Shown here one piece after another: positions 48,358 through 58,078 of a stretch of 64,000 bases of DNA. The DNA lies in NCBI GenBank assembly GCA_034226945.1, contig CP120461.1, positions 62,001 through 126,000 on the forward strand, given 5' to 3'. The notes under the pieces were generated by a model that saw only the letters and a list, made by a program, of their open reading frames with translations, searched no databases and was not told the DNA's origin. Position 1 is the stretch's first letter, and each line of letters opens with the position of its first letter. Both the position numbers and the translations under genes were made by a program. This DNA is from Picochlorum sp. SENEW3 (taxonomy: Eukaryota).

Positions 48358-50660
48358 CTATTGAATCATGCGGTCTTGTTTGGCTTTGCCATCTGGGATG
48401 TCAAAGAGGATGACTGGGTTGTCGGGGGAAATGTCTGCTGGGACGCTGTCGACAATGTAGTATCCTTTTCGTTCCAGTTGGAGAATGTCTCCCTTCTTGA
48501 GATCTCTCATATTGACGTCTCCAAGAGCCTGTATGACGTGTTTCGAATTTCTGTTGACGCAATCTTCGAATGTGTCATCCTCTTCCAGCTTTTTCTTGGT
48601 GATGAGGTATCCATAGTGCTCCAGTTGGAGAGGGCAGACGTCGCTGGTGTCCGCCAACCATGTCAGCTTGAGCTTGGTCTTTTTAAAATCTCCCTGAAGA
48701 TGTAAGCGTGCGTCGATGGAGGTGATGGTATCGTTCTCGCGATGAATGGTGTTGATGATGGCATTACCCCATCCCATGAGGGTGACTTCCTCACCCTCAG
48801 AGAGAAGGCATGCATCGTCGTAATCGATCAGAATTCTATCGGTACGGATCTGTTTCTTCATTCCTGCGGGTGGATATTTCAAATGTTTGGGTACCTCTAC
48901 TGTCTCTGCGGCTGCTCCGGAGAGGGAGACTGTCACCCTGTCCTTCTTGATGACGGCAGTGTGCCTGGGGCAGACTGGGTCGATGTATTTTTTATTCATC
49001 GCCCAAATCTTATCCCATTCTTGATATGTGATATTCTTTGATGCACCCTGCGTGAGCATGAATTCTCTTAATGCCTCAATCTGAAGTCCTCGTCGCAGGA
49101 TGCCCTGAACTGTTGGCATTCGTGGGTCATCCCATCCATCCACAATTCCCTCGGTGACAAACCATGTCAGTTTTCTTTTGGATAAGACGGTGTACACAAA
49201 TGATATACGAGCGTAATCCCACATTGTCACGTGTGGCAATTCTGGCCAGACGCTCTGCTGCAGTTTGAGAATCATGTAAAACTGCGCCTCTCTATCCCTG
49301 TATTCGGACGTACGAAGGGCATGCGTCACGCCTTCGTATGCATCTACAAATGGACAGGCAAAATCGTAGGTTGGATAACACTTGTATGTATATCCTGTTC
49401 GCCAGTGATGACCATCATTGCATCTGAAACAGACTGGGTCACGCAGTGCCTTGTTGGGGTTGGACATGTCCAATTTGACTCGAAGACAGTTGGCGACTCC
49501 TTCCTCGGAACCAGCAATCATTTCTTTAAAGATGCGTTGAGTCTCCTCGATTGGTCTGTTGCGCCGTTTGCTTTCTACACCGTGCATGCGCTCCTCTCTC
49601 ATCTGCTCAACTGGGGTGTCATCGGCGTACAACAGCCCAGCTTTGATCATTCTATCAGCGCACTCAAAGAGTTGTGGAAAATAATCCGACGTATATGTAA
49701 TCTTCTGGTACCGAAGTTTGAGGCGTTTGCAATCCTCAATGATATTCTCCACAAATTCATCCTTCTCTTTGGATGGGTTGGTGTCATCAAATCGCATCCT
49801 CATGACCCCATGGTATCTGTCAGCAATCTCTTGATTGATCAACGCAGCCTTCGCATGCCCAATATGAAGGTATCCAGAGGGTTCCGGAGGGAAACGTGTC
49901 ACCACAGCCCCATCCACAATATTTGGCAATTTGATAGCAAATGGGTCCCCTGCATCTCCTTTGGTAACCTTGACGCCCTTTGATTTCTCAGCCTTTTTCT
50001 TTTTAGGAGCATATGTTTCCGCGAGAGCTTTCATCGCTGGAAGAGAGTCGATATGGCTGAACCATCTGTCCACGTGATGGTATGTCTGGCGCATCCTCTG
50101 TGCCTGAGGGGCAGCCATGAGCTGCCCCCAGATGGCAATATCGGCAAGTGTCAACTCATGACCGACAAAATACGTTCTGCAAGACAAATACACATCCATA
50201 GATGCACATGCAGCATCCAAACCTGTACCAGGGACAACGTGCTTCTCAGCAAAATCCAGAAACGAGTCAATCTGACAGGCAGCCAGTGGGCTCCTCCCGT
50301 ACAGCCCTGTCTCCGCTACGATCCCACTCGATCGAGCAATGTATTTCATACAGGAACACAGTCCCTCCAAGACCTCTCCACTGCACACCAAACCGTATCG
50401 ATGTTATCCATGTTCCTATTGGCAATATACGAAGAAGAATGTCCTCAGCATGTCAGTCACGTGAGAAAGGTTGCTCGAGCAGCGGCAAAGGCACCATACC
50501 TGGCATCGAAACGGAATTCAATCGTTTTCTTCAGTTTTTCATCTTCCTTTTTGGCAAGATCCAGGTGCAATACGTCAGCTGCCGCCAAAATGCCACATGG
50601 AGGAGCATCTTTGGGATGACACAATACACCACCAATGGTGGCCTTCTCCTTGGTTGCCAT
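48358..50660 (-). CDS. Cytosolic glutamyl-tRNA synthetase with GST-like N-terminus; one intron
   Basis: TRFPPEPSGYLHIGHAK, RFDDTNP, THALRT.EY, LSKRKL, WDDPR.PT, QLERKGY. Confidence 0.95.
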
Positions 50661-51065: not shown

Positions 51066-51863
51066 TTACAAAAATGATGTTACGGCAATGATGACTTCAG
51101 CAGTTATGGCTACTGCTGTCGCAGTTGCTTCAGCAACCACTCCAGCGACTTCAAGTGCGCTAGGTGTCTGCTCCTCCACTGCGGCGCTAGCTTGGCCCTC
51201 TGTTGCCAAGCGTTCTCCCTCTGCCAGTGCCTGCTCCTCGGGCGTCAGCATTAGTCGACGCCTCCTACTCCCTCCTGCTGCAGTAGATGTGGTATTCACA
51301 AGAGACAACCCGTCTTGGTTGATTTCAAACACCTCTCCCGATGTCGTGGTCACCACGGCAGCCTCACCCGGAAGCACTTGGGCAGACGCCACGTTGTACA
51401 CAGTCACTGCCGTGTCCCCATCACTGGTGTTGGTCGTCACCGTCAGGCGTTCCACCCCCAACAGTTCACGAAGACTCGACATCTCGTACAACATGCGACC
51501 ATCTCTCACCCTCACAACCGATCCAACCGCCACTGGCTGCCCAGTCGACCTGCTCACCATGATCCCATTGTCATTGCCAACCACGCTGTCCAATTTCACC
51601 ACCATGTAGATGGACCCCGCGAATGCGGCCAGGAGCACCACCAGCGCCACAAGGAGCTGCATGACGATGGATCGGGTCAGCTTTCGGTCGTCCGCCGCAC
51701 GCTTCTCGTCCACCAACAGCCCAACCACGGCGTCCACAGACACCTGGCCCTCGCTGCCCGCAGACTCCTGCAGGCGACGCCCCACGTCACGGGGCATGGT
51801 CCTGCACTGCAGTAGGTCATCCAAAGAAACCTTGCCACCGTGTGGAAGATCAGTGTTCATCAT
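51066..51863 (-). CDS. Type II membrane precursor 'A1': EF-hand-like N-terminus, TM, beta-rich domain, RRRRL, hydrophobic tail
   Basis: Intronless GC-rich ORF; paralog of A2, B1 and B2. Confidence 0.75.
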   Translation of the reverse strand: MMNTDLPHGGKVSLDDLLQCRTMPRDVGRRLQESAGSEGQVSVDAVVGLLVDEKRAADDRKLTRSIVMQLLVALVVLLAAFAGSIYMVVKLDSVVGNDNGIMVSRSTGQPVAVGSVVRVRDGRMLYEMSSLRELLGVERLTVTTNTSDGDTAVTVYNVASAQVLPGEAAVVTTTSGEVFEINQDGLSLVNTTSTAAGGSRRRRLMLTPEEQALAEGERLATEGQASAAVEEQTPSALEVAGVVAEATATAVAITAEVIIAVTSFL

Positions 51864-52106
51864 ATTTTGCAGCACGACAAATAACCGGGCGTTGGAGAGA
51901 AACTGGCAACACCGCGAGATGGGACGTCGAAGAGGAATACGCAGCGATACCTTATTGTTATGCCACGGACGGTGCACGCCCTAGATATATGTATATGTAA
52001 ATGTATACCCGAACCAGATCGATGTCACCGAAGACGAATTTGGGAGTGCCTGGGTGGCAGACACCCCCATGGTTGCTTTAAAGCAGAGAAATTTCTCCAA
52101 CCCGGG

Positions 52107-52145
52107 CCGCGGGGCCCCGCGGACTGCGCGCAGTCTGCATGCAGA
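52107..52145. promoter_or_regulatory. Three chained palindromes in the divergent A1/B1 intergenic region
   Basis: CCGCGGGGCCCCGCGG (52107-52122), GACTGCGCGCAGTC (52122-52135), TCTGCATGCAGA (52134-52145); identical copy at 54947-54985. Confidence 0.45.
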
Positions 52146-52307
52146 TTGGAATCTACAACGTCGGCGTCACAAAAAAAAATACAATTGCCAACAATCTGTT
52201 TCTTTCATACTCACGTACATACAATCTCTTTCGCACCGCAAAGCAGAGTCGTGGTGTTTCTGTGAGGGCCATTCGACGAGGGAAGGAGAAGAAGAAGAAC
52301 ACACGGC

Positions 52308-53051
52308 ATGAGCAACGTAAAACAGGCGGACGTAGTGAGCCACGTGGCCCTGGCAGACGTGTTGGAGTGCAGGACGCTGCCTCGGTCTGTGGCCGCGAAC
52401 CTGGAAAAGGTCGCCGGCCGCGACGGCCAGGTGTCTGTGGACGCCCTGGTGGAGATGGTGGTGACGGACCACGAGTCCGGAGGGAACCGCAAGGTTCTGC
52501 GCCGTTCGGTCCTGGGCATTACGATTGCCATGGTGTGCCTGTCTGCGGTGGTGTGCGGGCTTGTATTTGGCTCGGTCCACCTGACCACCCAGATGCAGGT
52601 GCAGGACGGGGTGCTGCACGCTCGCGACAGCGCTGACACTGTGATGCATTCGGGGACAACGGTGGCTGCGTTCAGTCCTTCAGACCTCAAGACTGTTGAC
52701 AATCTCCAGATGAGTTCGATGCAAACTCTGCTATTTTCTGAGGAGGATGGCACCATGCACATGTACCGGGTATCTTCGGTGTCTTCACGTCCCGATGGGG
52801 AATTCGAGGTGGTGGCCACGTCGGGCGAGGAATTTGTGGTGTCCGCCGAGGGGACCATTCAGGTGATCAACAACGGATCTTCATCCGGGGGGCGGCGACG
52901 ATTGCAACAGTCTCTTGGGTCTCCCCTCCCAATCGAGACTCTCTGGATGCTTGGAAAATCTCTTTTTCAATTGCTTACTGATGCTAAAGAACAGACGAGG
53001 GGCGATCCCCCCCCCGCGTCAAGACCTTGTTTTACATGCTCAGAGTTTTGA
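52308..53051 (+). CDS. Type II membrane precursor 'B1': EF-hand-like N-terminus, TM, beta-rich domain, RRRL, amphipathic tail with Cys pair
   Basis: Intronless GC-rich ORF, divergent from A1; shares L..CRT.PR.V...L...AG..GQVSVDA, T.SGE.F and GG.RRRL with A. Confidence 0.75.
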   Translation: MSNVKQADVVSHVALADVLECRTLPRSVAANLEKVAGRDGQVSVDALVEMVVTDHESGGNRKVLRRSVLGITIAMVCLSAVVCGLVFGSVHLTTQMQVQDGVLHARDSADTVMHSGTTVAAFSPSDLKTVDNLQMSSMQTLLFSEEDGTMHMYRVSSVSSRPDGEFEVVATSGEEFVVSAEGTIQVINNGSSSGGRRRLQQSLGSPLPIETLWMLGKSLFQLLTDAKEQTRGDPPPASRPCFTCSEF

Positions 53052-53054
53052 CAA

Positions 53055-53160
53055 GTATGCGCATATTGCTCCAAGAGAGCTTGCTCATGAGGCAGGATAT
53101 GATGCATTCATGACTGGCACGGTGTTTGCTTGCCTGGTTGCCCATGCCTCTGACATTGCC
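53055..53160 (+). pseudogene. Fragment of a PARN/CAF1-family deadenylase
   Basis: LAHEAGYDAFMTGTVF matches the PARN ExoIII HEAGYDA motif; no start codon and no rest of the gene. Confidence 0.65.
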
Positions 53161-53498
53161 GAGACCAGCAGTTCAGAAGAAGAGGACGGCCAATTGTGCC
53201 TCGTGTAATGGTTCAGCTACGGCGATATAACCGGGTGCTGATGAACAGACGAGAAACGACAGTGTGGGTGTAGGTATTTGACCATTACATTGTCCGCATC
53301 ACCCAGTATTGATGCCAGGTACAGAACTGATGGATCAAAATAAGGCGACTCCTTTAGACGAGCTCTATCGCATGGTGGCATCAGACAGTGCAGATTCTTC
53401 ACTGGTGAGGAGATATACGACATTCTATTTTTTGGGGCACACCTTCGTGAAATCCGTTCGCTCGGGGACGGGAACCACGGAATCAATTAAGAGCGGCC

Positions 53499-53540
53499 TT
53501 ACAAAATTCGGCTTAAATCTGGCCTGCTTTAGCCCTCATT
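53499..53540 (+). repeat. 42-bp dispersed repeat, second copy at 56831-56872
   Basis: TTACAAAATTCGG(C/T)TTAAATCTGGCCTG(C/T)TTTAGCCCTCATT, 40/42 identical. Confidence 0.9.
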
Positions 53541-53917
53541 GTGCGGGGCGGCGATCTGACGTGGGCGGTTTCACCGTGTGAAGTGTCCACGAGACAATTG
53601 CTTGACCAACCATCATTGACGGCCAATACATTGAATGTCTGAAATTCAAGACATCGATACATGATAAACGCAAATAGAGCGATGTTTGATAGACTTTTTG
53701 TCTTAACGATTTCTTATAATTATTTATAATTTCTCATGGAGACATGGATACCTAATCATGCAGCTGTGGTGCAGACATGCATTCAATTTTGGGTGATACA
53801 TACATGCAGCGAGAGACATGGGGCGAGCATTCAATGATTTGCCGCCCCTCAGAGACTAAATAATTGAATGAACAATTGGGTCGCTGCGCTATCGCAATGG
53901 GTTGCGCTTTACTAAAG

Positions 53918-54703
53918 TTACAATAAGCCAATTACGACGATGACTGCTTCAGCAACCGTGACTGCTCCTGCAACCACACCAGCAACAGTAAGTGCATCTT
54001 TGTCATCTTGCTCCTGCACTGCGGCGCTAGCTTGGCCCTCTATTGCCAAGCGTTCTCCCTCTGCCAGTGCCTGCTCCTCGGGCGTCAGCATCAGTCGACG
54101 CCTCCTACTCCCTCCTGCTGCAGTAGATGTGGTATTCACAAGAGACAACCCGTCTTGGTTGATTTCAAACACCTCTCCCGATGTCGTGGTCACCACGGCA
54201 GCCTCACCCGGAAGCACTTGGGCAGACGCCACGTTGTACACAGTCACTGCCGTGTCCCCATCACTGGTGTTGGTCGTCACCGTCAGGCGTTCCACCCCCA
54301 ACAGTTCACGAAGACTCGACATCTCGTACAACATGCGACCATCTCTCACCCTCACAACCGATCCAACCGCCACTGGCTGCCCAGTCGACCTGCTCACCAT
54401 GATCCCATTGTCATTGCCAACCACGCTGTCCAATTTCACCACCATGTAGATGGACCCCGCGAATGCGGCCAGGAGCACCACCAGCGCCACAAGGAGCTGC
54501 ATGACGATGGATCGGGTCAGCTTTCGGTCGTCCGCCGCACGCTTCTCGTCCACCAACAGCCCAACCACGGCGTCCACAGACACCTGGCCCTCGCTGCCCG
54601 CAGACTCCTGCAGGCGACGCCCCACGTCACGGGGCATGGTCCTGCACTGCAGCAGGTCATCCAGAGACACCTTGCCACCGTGTGGAAGATCAGTGGTCAT
54701 CAT
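53918..54703 (-). CDS. Type II membrane precursor 'A2', duplicate of A1 with a different tail
   Basis: Near-identical to A1 up to ...GQASAAV; tail QEQDDKDALTVAGVVAGAVTVAEAVIVVIGLL. Confidence 0.75.
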   Translation of the reverse strand: MMTTDLPHGGKVSLDDLLQCRTMPRDVGRRLQESAGSEGQVSVDAVVGLLVDEKRAADDRKLTRSIVMQLLVALVVLLAAFAGSIYMVVKLDSVVGNDNGIMVSRSTGQPVAVGSVVRVRDGRMLYEMSSLRELLGVERLTVTTNTSDGDTAVTVYNVASAQVLPGEAAVVTTTSGEVFEINQDGLSLVNTTSTAAGGSRRRRLMLTPEEQALAEGERLAIEGQASAAVQEQDDKDALTVAGVVAGAVTVAEAVIVVIGLL

Positions 54704-55187
54704 ATTTTGCAGCACGACAAATAACCGGGCGTCGGAGAGAAACTGGCAACACCGCGAGATGGGACGTCGAAGAGGAATACGCAGCGATACCTTATTGTTA
54801 TGCCACGGACGGTGCACGCCCTAGATATATGTATATATAAGTGTATACCCGAACTAGATCGATGTCACCGAAGACGAATTTGGGAGTGCCTAGGTGGTAG
54901 ACACCCCCATGGTTGCTTTAAAGCAGGGAAATTTCTCCAACCCGGGCCGCGGGGCCCCGCGGACTGCGCGCAGTCTGCATGCAGATTGGAATCTACAACG
55001 TTGGCGTCACAAGACCCTCCCTCGACCAGGGCATCCTGTCACAAACAAAACAATTGCCAAGAATCTGTTTCTTTCATACTCACATACATATAATCTCTTT
55101 CGCACCGCAAACCAGAGTCGTGGTGTTTCTGTGAGGGCTGCCGTTTGCGACAAGTCGACGAGGGAAGGAGAAGAAGAAGAATACGGC

Positions 55188-55922
55188 ATGAGCAACGTAA
55201 AACAGGCGGACGTAGTGAGCCACGTGGCCCTGGCAGACGTGTTGGAGTGCAGGACGCTGCCTCGGTCTGTGGCCGCGAACCTGGAAAAAGCTGCAGGCCG
55301 CGACGGCCAGGTGTCTGTGGACGCCCTGGTGGAGATGGTGGTGACGGACCACGAGTCCGGAGGGAACCGCAAGGTTCTGCGCCGTTCGGTCCTGGGCATT
55401 ACGATTGCCATGGTGTGCCTGTCTGCGGTGGTGTGCGGGCTTGTATTTGGCTCGGTCCACCTGACCACCCAGATGCAGGTGCAGGACGGGGTGCTGCACG
55501 CTCGCGACAGCGCTGACACTGTGATGCATTCGGGGACAACGGTGGCTGCGTTCAGTCCTTCAGACCTCAAGACTGTTGACAATCTCCAGATGAGTTCGAT
55601 GCAAACTCTGCTATTTTCTGAGGAGGATGGCACCATGCACATGTACCGGGTATCTTCGGTGTCTTCACGTCCCGATGGGGAATTCGAGGTGGTGGCCACG
55701 TCGGGCGAGGAATTTGTGGTGTCCGCCGAGGGGACCATTCAGGTGGTTAATAATGGGCCTTCATCCGGGGGGCGGCGACGATTGCAACAGTCTCTTCCCC
55801 TCCCAATCGAGACTCTCTGGATGCTTGGAAAATCTCTTAATCAGTTGCTTACTGATGCTGATGAACAGACGAGGGGCGATCCCCCCCCCGCCCCGTGTAT
55901 CCCAAATCTCTTGGGCTGTTGA
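55188..55922 (+). CDS. Type II membrane precursor 'B2', duplicate of B1 with a different tail
   Basis: Three substitutions versus B1 before RRRL; tail ends GDPPPAPCIPNLLGC. Confidence 0.75.
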   Translation: MSNVKQADVVSHVALADVLECRTLPRSVAANLEKAAGRDGQVSVDALVEMVVTDHESGGNRKVLRRSVLGITIAMVCLSAVVCGLVFGSVHLTTQMQVQDGVLHARDSADTVMHSGTTVAAFSPSDLKTVDNLQMSSMQTLLFSEEDGTMHMYRVSSVSSRPDGEFEVVATSGEEFVVSAEGTIQVVNNGPSSGGRRRLQQSLPLPIETLWMLGKSLNQLLTDADEQTRGDPPPAPCIPNLLGC

Positions 55923-55924
55923 GG

Positions 55925-56606
55925 TGATGGTGCATAATACAACAATCCATTGTGTTCAGTCACAGCATCCATGTTCATGTGGTCCAAAATGGATGGTACT
56001 GGAACCTTCTGCTTCCAACACTTTCGAATCAATCCAATAAACTTCTGTCTGTCTTGTACAGCTGCTTCAACCTCTTGACAAGAGTTTCGTCCAGCTGCAA
56101 TCCCACAGCAACAGTGTTCAAAGCAACTTCTGGAGGTCTGCTGAGCAAATCAGCAATACAGTTCTTCTTCTCGTCGATGTATTGAATATCCAGGTTGTAA
56201 TCAGCCATATTTTGTAACCATCTGCTTTGTACCAGATTGAGATCTTTTTGAGTGAGCATGTGGGCCAAAGGCCTGTGATCAGTAAAGACCACATTCTTAG
56301 GCTGTCCTAGCAGGTAACTCCTGAAACGTCACACAGCGAGCCTCATAGCAAGAAATTTCTTATCATAGACCGAATACTTGAGCTCTGCATTACCCAGCTT
56401 TTTAGAGTAATATCCAAGAGGATGATACATGCCATCCACCAACTGTGTGAGCACTCCTCCAATGGCATGCTCGGAAGCATCTGTGAACAGGTAAAATGGG
56501 TTGGACACATCCACCAATCTCAAGACTGGGTACGTGGTCAAAGCATTCCTGAGCACCTCATAAGCTTGCTGAGCTTTCCGTGTCCACACAAAGGGCACAT
56601 CCTGCT
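55925..56606 (-). mobile_element. Ty3/gypsy LTR-retrotransposon pol relic (RT connection/RNase H)
   Basis: PFVWT..AQQAY..L...L...PVL, LFTDAS..AIGGVL.Q, YYSKKL, VFTDHRPL, RWLQ, N.IADLLSR; in-frame stops at 56329 and ~56029. Confidence 0.9.
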
Positions 56607-56938
56607 TGGTGTTTGTTGGTGTTTGGAGTGGAAGAGGAAATGGCATGTGACAGGCCTCTTCGACTCCAAGCCAATCCTGCCCTGCCAATCAATACCAAGA
56701 GTTTCTCTCCTGGTATTCTCTTCGTCGATCCACAATTTGCACGAGTGTAACATTGTGGCCAAAAACAGTAAAAATTTTTATATCATGACCCAAATTTGTA
56801 CCATAAAAGTGGTACAAATTACGAAATTTTTTACAAAATTCGGTTTAAATCTGGCCTGTTTTAGCCCTCATTCATCATGACGAGAATGTATGGCCTTGAC
56901 GTTCTAGTGTTTGAATTTTTTACACAAATTTCTTGATT

Positions 56939-58078
56939 ATGGGGGCATCAATCATACCCAAAGAAGCACAGAATGATCCCAGTGAGTTTGGGGTCATTCA
57001 GCATGGGGACAATGTTGCAATCTATGAAAGACCAGATGCTGTCAAATCTACCACCATAGATGAGCATGGAATATACCAGAGTCGAGATGGGCTACATGAG
57101 ATGAAGGTAGGAGTGCGATATTGTTTACTAAGACCTGTTTTCAAACATGTCATGCAACTTGAATGCAAAACCATGTGCGTGCAGGATTGGATAGGGCGAG
57201 AGTACGGCACGAGACTGATTAATTCCAAGGGAAAATCTATATATGTAGTCAAATTGACTCCGGAATTATGGACGCTGGCATTGACGCATAGGACCCAGGT
57301 GCTGTATGTGGCTGATATAGCCATGGTGGTGTTCAAGCTGGAGCTCAAGCCTGGGGCTCTCGTGTTAGAGACGGGGACGGGAACGGGTTCTTTGACGACG
57401 TCCCTTGCGAGGGCTGTGGCGCCGCATGGTAAGGTGGCGACGTTTGATTATCACGAGGAGCGTGTGGGATTGGCAAGGAAGGATTTTGAGAGGCATGGTA
57501 TTGATCATGTGGTGGATGTTACCCGCCGAGACACGCAGCGAGATGGATTTCCTGAGGAATATATAGGCAAAGCGGATGCGGTATTTTTAGATGTTCCGAT
57601 GCCGTGGCTGGTGATTGGTTCGGCAGCTGCGTGTTTGAGACCAGATGGGATGGTGTGTAGTTTCAGTCCTTGCATCGAGCAGGTCCAGCGGACCTGCGAC
57701 GCGTTAAATTCGAATGGATTTAAGGATATCCAAACCATGGAGATTCTGCTTCGAGAACATCAAATTGTGAAGGAAGGGTTGCTGTCTACTATTGATTTGA
57801 TGTACATTCAGCAGGGACGTAGAGCCAAGGCTGCGACAAAGAATGCAGAGGGACCTCCGGAGAAGAAAAAGGTCAAGCTGAGCGAGGACGCTCATAATCA
57901 TAGTAATGCAAATGATGCGAATAGTGAGAAACAAGAAGGAAATGCCACGGGGAAACAAGAAGCGAACAATAAGAAGAAGAAGCCACAAAAAGAGTTGATG
58001 AGCAAGCCTGTCTTTGCAGCCAAAGGCCATACTGGATATCTTACATTTGCTCGTCGTGCTGTATCAATTACAGGTTAA
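56939..58078 (+). CDS. TRM61: tRNA (adenine58-N1)-methyltransferase catalytic subunit; intron ~57107-57185
   Basis: PELWT..L.HRTQVLY..DI, VLETGTGTGS, DAVFLDVP.PW, SFSPCIEQVQ, HTGYLTFA. Confidence 0.93.
   Translation: MGASIIPKEAQNDPSEFGVIQHGDNVAIYERPDAVKSTTIDEHGIYQSRDGLHEMKVGVRYCLLRPVFKHVMQLECKTMCVQDWIGREYGTRLINSKGKSIYVVKLTPELWTLALTHRTQVLYVADIAMVVFKLELKPGALVLETGTGTGSLTTSLARAVAPHGKVATFDYHEERVGLARKDFERHGIDHVVDVTRRDTQRDGFPEEYIGKADAVFLDVPMPWLVIGSAAACLRPDGMVCSFSPCIEQVQRTCDALNSNGFKDIQTMEILLREHQIVKEGLLSTIDLMYIQQGRRAKAATKNAEGPPEKKKVKLSEDAHNHSNANDANSEKQEGNATGKQEANNKKKKPQKELMSKPVFAAKGHTGYLTFARRAVSITG

Follow-up and report, generated by a model that had tools for sequence, protein, structure and literature searches.

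A 64,000-nucleotide (nt) stretch of the Picochlorum sp. SENEW3 genome (contig CP120461.1, positions 62,001 to 126,000; hereafter the window, to which all coordinates refer) contains four open reading frames (ORFs) that, from the ORF listing and their translation, make up two copies of a divergent gene pair, here called A/B. Their sequences place these genes in a large, so far undescribed family of putative type II single-pass membrane proproteins from algae, in which a conserved head ends in a short basic motif and is followed by a tail that varies from member to member. We are highly confident of this architecture and of the mosaic evolution described below. The explanation of the whole that we favour, at slightly better than an even chance, is that the head would act as a type II carrier and that exchangeable tails would be released from it by a protease of the site-1 protease (S1P) type.

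The A/B pair is duplicated and its two copies differ mainly in the distal tails

In the first copy, A1 (51066–51863, minus strand; 265 amino acids (aa), P0001), coding for a putative type II membrane precursor of the A subfamily, is divergent to B1 (52308–53051, plus strand; 247 aa, P0002), a paralog of the B subfamily. The second copy consists of A2 (53918–54703, minus strand; 261 aa, P0003) and B2 (55188–55922, plus strand; 244 aa, P0004 minus its first residue). The B2 reading frame is open from 54909, and its start was set at the conserved MSNVKQ at 55188 by alignment with B1 and P0023. All four ORFs were found where an initial annotation, made from the sequence alone, had placed them and with the layout that it had described. 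Its estimate of about 445–485 bp for the divergent intergenic regions is borne out by lengths of 444 nt in pair 1 (51864–52307) and 484 nt in pair 2 (54704–55187, placed by the gene coordinates and the duplication); that of pair 1 is presumed to be a bidirectional promoter, which was duplicated along with the genes. A and B are paralogs, as had been proposed, with 32% identity over 198 residues (E = 4e-24).

A blastn comparison of the two halves aligned 51126–52172 with 53963–55012 (97.2% identity) and 52166–53017 with 55038–55891 (94.7%). The duplicated units hence extend over 51126–53017, which starts and stops within the 3′ ends of A1 and B1, and over 53963–55891. The module had been called a tandem duplication; the duplication itself stands, but the units do not simply abut, since an unrepeated spacer of 945 nt lies between them. 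No more copies of the A/B genes were found in the 64-kb window.

The basic motif that separates head and tail is RRRRL in A1 (R200–L204, 51252–51266, minus strand), where it is a candidate S1P-type processing site and recombination junction, and RRRL in B1 (R196–L199, 52893–52904, plus strand), where it was placed by translation and the family motif; it lies at 54092–54106 in A2 and at 55773–55784 in B2. The tails occupy 51069–51251 in A1 (minus strand, residues 205–265), 52905–53048 in B1 (plus strand, residues 200–247), 53921–54091 in A2 and 55785–55919 in B2. Before the motif, A1 differs from A2 at one residue and B1 from B2 at three, the counts already given in the initial annotation. Its further claim, that the tails are rewritten between the copies, holds for the distal ~30 residues of A and ~10 of B but not for the proximal parts. 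The first ~28 residues past RRRRL in A are conserved except for two substitutions, and only the last ~30 diverge; the first ~37 in B are conserved except for a two-residue indel and two substitutions, and the last ~10 are without homology. In 45-nt windows, the unit in which nucleotide identity was taken, A1 and A2 are 100% identical over nt 91–585 and 98% to nt 675, and then 65, 49 and 67% identical. Synonymous divergence (dS) between A1 and A2 rises from 0.025 for the head to 0.324 for the tail, and that between B1 and B2 from 0.047 to 0.19. Because head and tail dS differ so much, uniform mutation after one duplication is excluded, and we read the pattern as one in which heads and promoters have been homogenised by gene conversion, or tails have been replaced. 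The differences between the copies would then come from mosaic recombination or gene conversion, rather than from a rapid rewriting of the tails.

The heads belong to a large algal family with a common plan

Database searches at E ≤ 1e-3 returned 18 relatives of A1 and 12 of B1, and those with a species name are all from Picochlorum, a genus of small green algae. A profile built from 27 proteins of both subfamilies reached much further: among 1.84 billion representatives, it matched 157 clusters at E ≤ 1e-3, of which 81 passed E ≤ 1e-10 and nine E ≤ 1e-30. Named members beyond Picochlorum come from Nannochloris desiccata and Micractinium, both of which are Chlorellales, and members of the more typical, non-A/B kind occur in Picochlorum too; as far as these sequences go, the A/B subfamily is specific to the Picochlorum lineage. 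A language-model look-up with P0036 gave leads scoring below 0.9 to diatoms, chlorophytes and haptophytes, a range that we do not claim for the family, and the luminal part of A1 gave nothing usable in such a look-up. With two family alignments as queries, there were no relatives among viral contigs.

The members have a plan in common, which consists of a cytosolic EF-hand, a signal-anchor helix, a luminal beta domain of ~100 aa, a Gly/Ser-rich linker with the basic motif and an unrelated tail. Pfam has no model for the helix-plus-beta core, as scanned with the window proteins and 149 members, and no Pfam domain at all, BRICHOS included, matched the four window proteins at E ≤ 1, which agrees with the initial annotation in claiming no BRICHOS homology. 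Nor had that annotation recognised a described family with this organisation: our literature searches found no description of the family, the supplementary gene-family tables (S9) of PMC6141220 lying outside those searches. This Picochlorum costavermella genome paper lists expanded gene families without names.

Predicted topology and structure of the head

The N-terminal part has a single hydrophobic segment, which begins near residue 67, past a hydrophilic part of ~65 residues with a positive flank. The features of a cleavable N-terminal signal peptide were not found in this region, and the segment is read as a signal anchor. In A1 this transmembrane helix (about residues 67–89, 51597–51665, minus strand) was placed by hydropathy and by the helix in the AlphaFold2 model, and the best 19-residue hydropathy window covers residues 71–89, with a mean Kyte–Doolittle value of 2.64. 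Across the family, the 15 residues flanking the helix hold on average 4.09 Lys plus Arg on the N-terminal side and 1.09 on the C-terminal side, the N-terminal side being the richer in 110 of 113 heads. N-x-S/T sequons are nine times denser past the helix than before it (1.38 vs. 0.15 per 100 aa), and 74 of 128 members have one no more than 25 residues before the motif. Furthermore, 68 of 131 tails have at least four Cys, and the number of Cys is even in 57 of these. Together, the charge bias, the sequons and the even Cys counts support the type II topology of the initial annotation, with the N-terminus predicted inside and the C-terminus, and hence the tail, outside the cytosol.

An earlier model from a shallow alignment was poor (predicted local distance difference test (pLDDT) 49.5), and AlphaFold2 with a deep alignment of 149 rows reached a mean pLDDT of 64.8. 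In this model, a helix-loop-helix has a short strand in its loop, and its exiting helix runs on into the membrane helix (residues 43–92, pLDDT 80–93). The luminal beta-rich domain (about residues 95–190 of A1, 51294–51581, minus strand; sequons at 145 and 190) was delimited from the predicted strands and contains a five-strand antiparallel sheet at residues 139–190 (pLDDT 70–83). Just past the last strand, the segment 192–210, which holds the motif, has a pLDDT of 38.

A Foldseek search of the PDB with the whole model, and not with the beta domain alone, had no hit at E ≤ 0.001. Its best matches were the AtaA stalk and chains of the dystrophin–glycoprotein complex (E 0.05, template modelling (TM) score 0.12–0.17). 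The latter, which we take to be sarcoglycans, stood at ranks 2, 4 and 8 (E 0.05–0.2, TM score 0.16–0.17); they were absent from the top 50 of a second look with VIA, and the window proteins had no Pfam match of this kind. The wide VIA search gave only long-helix matches (Z ≤ 5.3, residues 41–109), and the second look (Z ≤ 4.7) likened the beta part to single propeller blades at Z 3–4. A PDB sequence search with the family profile returned no match at E ≤ 10.

The cytosolic part of A1 contains a degenerate (pseudo) EF-hand loop at residues 34–45 (51729–51764, minus strand), which was placed by alignment to the canonical 12-residue loops of relatives. The loop of a canonical EF-hand is 12 residues long, has Gly at position 6 and offers oxygen ligands from positions 1, 3, 5 and 12. 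This pattern is present in 80 of the 94 non-A/B members and in none of the 28 A/B members, in which the loop is one residue shorter and the ligands at positions 1, 3 and 12 are lost. The Pfam EF-hand models (PF00036/PF13202) did not match the four window proteins at E ≤ 1. An EF-hand model did match 20 of the 26 distant members scanned at E ≤ 0.01, two of them reaching the curated cut-off, and 29 of 149 members at E ≤ 0.001. Hence, the EF-hand-like loop noted in the initial annotation is homologous to the genuine EF-hands of relatives but is degenerate in the window genes, and from these alignments the A/B members have lost Ca2+ ligands that most other family members keep. The presence of a single EF-hand in each chain suggests that the proteins might dimerise, possibly A with B.

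A basic motif of the S1P type stands at the head–tail boundary

Among the 144 members that cover this region, 114 have the strict motif RR[RK]{0,2}L and 131 a loose form of it. In the strict motif, Gly precedes in 77 of the 114 cases, and the following residue is Leu (60), Met (25) or Gln (13) in 98. According to parts of PMC7162652, the plant enzyme AtSBT6.1/S1P prefers R-(R/K)-X-L or R-(R/K)-L-X and cuts membrane-anchored bZIP factors, and S1P/SBT6.1 predates the split between plants and animals. RXL is likewise treated as a general endoprotease motif of diatom secretory proteins in the sections consulted of PMC4557024 and PMC5501833. In the window proteins, RRRRL or RRRL lies in a low-confidence, disordered segment on the side that charge and sequons mark as luminal. 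The motif fits the S1P/SBT6.1 consensus and is conserved family-wide.

Cleavage at the motif with release of the tail is, in our judgement, slightly more probable than not. We favour proteolytic release because a conserved motif of an enzyme-site type stands in a disordered linker exactly at the boundary of head and tail, because this motif would be exposed in the lumen, because the cargo includes normally soluble enzymes and because recombination junctions fall at the same place.

The tails are highly diverse

The part past the motif ranges from 3 to 549 aa, with a median of 79. The 128 tails of at least 25 residues fall into 95 BLAST clusters at E ≤ 1e-4, of which 78 are singletons, so that the variation of the tails behind a conserved front part, proposed from the four window proteins, extends to the whole family. 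Averaged over pairs of full-length proteins and with every gap scored as a mismatch, the identity of the A sequences (16) falls from 0.72 before the motif to 0.20 after it, and that of the B sequences (10) from 0.65 to 0.15. Some tails contain DUF285 (E 5.5e-88; in at least 10 of the 54 hits of one search), and others the cathepsin propeptide (I29) with a papain-type Peptidase_C1, FAS1 or ubiquitin; one member is labelled 'surface protein' in a source record. There are also Cys-rich tails, with 12 Cys in P0014 and P0019 and 7–8 in P0030–P0032 and P0034, while further tails are Gly/Ala-rich and hydrophobic, or Pro-rich. A cassette common to A and B was considered and dropped, as the tail BLAST did not link P0014 (A) with P0030/P0034 (B).

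In the window, the A1 tail has an acidic stretch followed by a hydrophobic extreme C-terminus. The last 19 residues of the A tails form a hydrophobic stretch with a mean hydropathy of 1.82 in A1 and 2.54 in A2, which suggests that the A product is probably held on the membrane by a second helix or by a glycosylphosphatidylinositol (GPI)-type lipid anchor, contrary to the idea of a free secreted A peptide. The B1 tail has an amphipathic helix, a Pro-rich stretch and two Cys, and by residue count from its translation it is slightly acidic and not cationic. A B-type metagenome locus (L008, 3–635, plus strand) has a tail that opens with an amphipathic helix and Pro stretch like those of B1 and B2 and then continues with six Cys in the spacing C-x6-C-x6-CC-x3-C-x9-C, which we take to be a knottin pattern; B1 and B2 end before that part.

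By eye, the first 15–20 residues past the motif resemble a short amphipathic helix in P0020, P0029, P0031, P0034, P0051 and B1/B2, and this segment could be a common pro-segment. The tail of P0024, a Picochlorum gene model, corresponds to a +1 frame ORF that overlaps B2 at 55627–56040 (plus strand) and is without RRRL; this gene model or its assembly probably has a frameshift just before the motif.

Heads and tails have separate histories

Eight metagenome loci (L001–L008) were recovered and compared with the window genes. Against the A gene of another strain (L001), A1 is 87–100% identical to nt 585 and then 71, 40, 33, 42 and 16% identical in successive windows, the motif ending at nt 612; the comparison with L003 looks the same. 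L002, whose head is 80–93% identical to that of A1 in all but one 45-nt window, has the same tail type throughout (58–82%). Two contigs from sequencing runs show the junction itself, their ends past the breakpoint having been translated by hand. One from run X2 follows A1 as far as 51264, where the motif's first Arg codon lies, before switching to the tail type of P0007/P0008, and one from run X12, an oligo-dT metatranscriptome, matches B1 to 52906, just past the motif, and then continues into a tail like that of P0034. The tails of A2 and B2 recur in P0005 and P0023.

The ratio of nonsynonymous to synonymous substitution rates (dN/dS) is 0.70 for the tails of A1/L002, 0.70 for A1/A2 and 0.42 for B1/B2, and 0.09–0.22 for the heads. 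A comparison of dN/dS before and after RRRL had been proposed as a check, and it showed no positive selection on the tails, whose ratios of 0.4–0.7 do not exceed 1 and indicate what seems to be weak constraint.

Recombination may also affect the 5′ ends. P0020 (A-type) and P0031 (B-type), both from a different Picochlorum lineage, are identical over their first 51 residues, but the rest is far more diverged and the whole alignment only 38% identical, which points to conversion also between the inverted A and B partners. In the window, the DNA of the EF-loop region is 83–84% identical between A and B over 57–59 nt, compared to 32% protein identity overall.

The A/B pair as an inherited unit, and its expression

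Only two metagenome loci, L001 and L005, have clearly enough upstream sequence, and in both a divergent partner is present ~465–480 nt away, so that the expected recurrence of the head-to-head A+B arrangement was seen in each locus able to show it; the other five loci, with 2–487 nt upstream, are uninformative on pairing. In L007, a B gene is followed by an inverted A gene, like B1 and A2 in the window. In a FastTree tree of 102 heads of at least 170 residues (26 shorter heads were left out, and the root is a midpoint root only), A (15 rows) and B (10 rows) each form one clade and together form one clade, with Shimodaira–Hasegawa-like supports of 97, 96 and 100. Their internal order is parallel, with P0020/P0021 basal in A and P0031/P0032 basal in B. 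From these sister clades with parallel branching, we infer that the pair arose once, by an inverted duplication within the Picochlorum lineage, and was inherited as a pair.

In the metatranscriptome run X12, seven contigs of 90–99% likeness fall for the most part within the coding stretches of A1, B1 and B2 and give a weak indication that these three genes are transcribed. The same run has no cover over 52988–55249 (the spacer, A2 and the pair-2 promoter), which says nothing either way.

Proposed mechanism and alternative explanations

We propose that the head would consist of a cytosolic EF-hand, a signal-anchor helix, a beta domain of ~100 residues that could be glycosylated and a Gly/Ser linker ending in G-R-R-(R)-L-[L/M/Q], and that everything past the motif would be a replaceable cargo tail. 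During transit through the secretory pathway, a Golgi subtilase of the S1P/SBT6.1 type would cut the motif, so that the cargo comes off its anchor. For B, this cargo would be a soluble peptide of ~45 residues with an amphipathic helix, a Pro-rich stretch and one Cys pair, and for A an acidic peptide of ~60 residues, probably kept on the membrane via its hydrophobic C-terminus (second helix or GPI-type signal). Heads and promoters would be kept near identical by gene conversion or recent duplication, and tails would be exchanged by recombination at or shortly past the motif. The system may serve surface or secreted variability, in conflict or recognition, and our confidence in any specific biological role is low.

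Several observations weigh against this proposal. Even the loose motif is missing in 13 of 144 members, and the motif lies ~110 residues from the membrane, so that a boundary motif could have another role. Cleavage, the protease and secretion are predictions from sequence, and confidence in the modelled beta domain is no more than moderate (mean pLDDT 64.8). The tail dN/dS of 0.42–0.70 fits relaxed constraint rather than diversifying selection. The window tails, with no Cys (A) or two (B) and without a recognisable domain, could be degenerate remnants, and the L008 B tail continues into a six-Cys domain that is absent from B1 and B2. Finally, the RNA contigs come from a mixed community and may include DNA.

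The alternative that fares best, although we consider it unlikely, is that the proteins are variable surface proteins that stay uncleaved, with the head as a membrane stalk, the tail as an attached, fast-evolving exposed domain (an adhesin, or a target or decoy for viruses, bacteria or grazers) and G-RR-L-L as a structural or sorting motif. The topology and the extracellular type of cargo (DUF285, FAS1, Cys-rich) suit surface display equally well, as does the member labelled as a surface protein, and the proposed cut is itself a prediction from sequence. However, a short basic motif that is kept across very divergent members, in a disordered linker and with a subtilase consensus, is more typical of an enzyme site, and a papain-like protease, normally a soluble enzyme, occurs as cargo together with its propeptide.

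A second alternative, which we regard as improbable, is regulated intramembrane proteolysis, where the tail would be a sensor and a luminal cut, as in ATF6 and bZIP17/28, would license a membrane cut that releases a cytosolic EF-hand peptide. Site-2 proteases (S2P) are not known to accept luminal stubs as long as the ~110 residues that a cut at the motif would leave. Moreover, the cytosolic part has only ~65 residues, without a DNA-binding or other effector domain, and the A/B members of the window are without Ca2+ ligands. These points count against a reading to which the cytosolic part and the helix, the most conserved regions at the nucleotide level in the B comparisons, lend some weight, as does the combination of type II topology with a luminal S1P-type site, which is the layout of known S1P/S2P substrates; PMC7162652 describes the cutting of membrane-anchored bZIP factors by AtS1P.

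Slightly more doubtful still is the proposal of the initial annotation, in which the peptides released from A and B would be matched and would work jointly, either as a two-component toxin or antimicrobial or in self/non-self or mating signalling. It draws on the conservation of A/B as a unit with a common promoter, the parallel branching of the A and B trees, the tail differences between strains and the knottin-like six-Cys pattern of the L008 B tail. Nevertheless, the A tails, acidic and hydrophobic at the end, look as if they were held on the membrane, the B tail has a slightly acidic instead of a cationic composition, the Pfam matches include no toxin or pheromone domain, the tail dN/dS is below 1 and the pairing is seen only in the Picochlorum subfamily.

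That the tail differences are a by-product of a segmental duplication ending inside the genes, with distal tails that read into unrelated DNA or are decaying pseudogene ends, is very improbable: the unit ends (51126/53963 and 53017/55891) do lie inside the last ~20 codons of A and ~11 of B, and the distal end of B1 occurs in no other match, but the A1 tail recurs at full length in the clearly different lineage L002, three of the four tail ends recur in other assemblies (L002, P0005, P0023), the distal tails of A1 and A2 are alignable, both hydrophobic at the end and with a tail dS of 0.32, and the same discontinuity between head and tail is found family-wide.

Relation to known systems

If the type II carrier with releasable tails is correct, it resembles several known precursors, although it is not one of the conopeptides, cathelicidins, BRICHOS precursors or bacterial polymorphic toxins. 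In animals, conopeptides, cathelicidins and frog-skin antimicrobial peptides are made from precursors whose pre-pro region is conserved and whose mature C-terminal peptide is hypervariable. The likeness lies in the conserved leader, the basic site, the hypervariable and often Cys-rich product and the very different rates of head and tail; unlike these soluble precursors with a cleaved signal peptide, the algal proteins would have an uncleaved signal anchor and a cytosolic EF-hand, and their cargo can be a whole domain of several hundred residues. BRICHOS precursors (BRI2/ITM2B, arenicin) are type II proteins with a luminal domain, a basic site and a C-terminal peptide, which is also the predicted layout of the algal family, but the algal proteins have no BRICHOS match at E ≤ 1 and their beta domain has no clear structural match.

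Bacterial polymorphic toxins (contact-dependent inhibition (CDI), Rhs) combine a conserved delivery part and a junction motif with swapped C-terminal cassettes. The algal family matches this in its conserved N-terminal part, its junction motif, its non-homologous C-terminal cassettes and its breakpoints at the junction. It differs in that the proteins are eukaryotic and of the secretory pathway, no toxin domain or adjacent immunity gene was recognised and cutting would be done by a host subtilase. Teneurins have EF-hand-like motifs in their cytosolic domain. Like the algal proteins, they are type II and combine Ca-binding-like motifs at the N-terminus, on the cytosolic side, with a peptide at the far C-terminal end, but they have a very large ectodomain with a YD shell, of which there is nothing in the algal family. 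The C-terminal associated peptide of teneurins is bioactive (PMC4408839).

In plant and animal substrates of S1P/SBT6.1 (pro-peptides such as CLEL6/GLV1 and RALF23, and the membrane factors bZIP17/28 and ATF6), an exposed linker bears, on the luminal side, a motif of the type R-(R/K)-X-L, the consensus given in passages of PMC7162652. The membrane factors among them are also type II. There is no sequence homology to these substrates; the family described here has a conserved anchor and beta domain with the variable part past the site, its cytosolic part is a single EF-hand and not a transcription factor, and its cleavage is predicted. Diatom silaffins, cingulins and SiMat7-like proteins have an RXL-type motif (RRIL, RRNL) for precursor cutting in the secretory pathway, according to the relevant parts of PMC4557024 and PMC5501833, but they are biosilica proteins with signal peptides or C-terminal anchors, and have no homology to the algal family and no EF-hand.

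We also consider, tentatively and as a rather improbable extension, that the family could be a eukaryotic counterpart of polymorphic effector systems in Chlorellales, and possibly in other phytoplankton. An ancestrally Ca2+-sensing type II carrier would bring interchangeable cassettes (knottin-like Cys-rich peptides, DUF285 repeats, FAS1, proteases) along the secretory pathway and let them go at a subtilase site that doubles as the recombination junction, and in Picochlorum the co-regulated A and B products would act together at the cell surface in conflict or recognition with cells, viruses or bacteria.

If the cargo is released at the motif, small green algae would have a general and so far unnoticed way to diversify secreted or surface molecules, in which one conserved carrier with an ancestral cytosolic calcium sensor is coupled to a freely exchangeable product; algae would then offer a counterpart to the way in which conotoxin and cathelicidin precursors are built, and to the polymorphic toxins of bacteria. 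To our knowledge, very little is known at the molecular level about the interactions of pico-algae, and the family would give a handle on their dealings with bacteria, viruses, grazers and each other. Picochlorum strains are under development as production hosts, and a native module of anchor plus release could serve secretion engineering. Even without cleavage, this is a large family whose core has no Pfam model and which combines concerted evolution of the heads with exchange of tail cassettes.

Genomic surroundings

The module lies within ordinary gene-dense DNA, with a somewhat higher G+C content (0.52–0.57 vs. ~0.47). It is flanked by a Glu/Gln-type tRNA synthetase (48358–50349, minus strand), which is of class I and has a weak glutathione S-transferase-like match at its N-terminus, and by a GCD14-type tRNA methyltransferase (56939–58078, plus strand). 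Between the pairs, an 89-aa ORF (53312–53581) was considered as a partner gene and rejected, as it has no Pfam match and no other support; it is the sole ORF in the 866-nt spacer downstream of B1, where no cognate immunity gene was recognised. Just downstream of B2, a 105-aa ORF (56329–56646, minus strand) is an RNase H fragment of a long terminal repeat (LTR) retrotransposon (RT_RNaseH_2, E 9.4e-25). A 42-nt direct repeat with 95% identity occurs downstream of B1 (53499–53540) and of B2 (56831–56872); it is not collinear with the duplicated units, and the depth of run X15 peaks in the bin of its first copy, which suggests a dispersed repeat.

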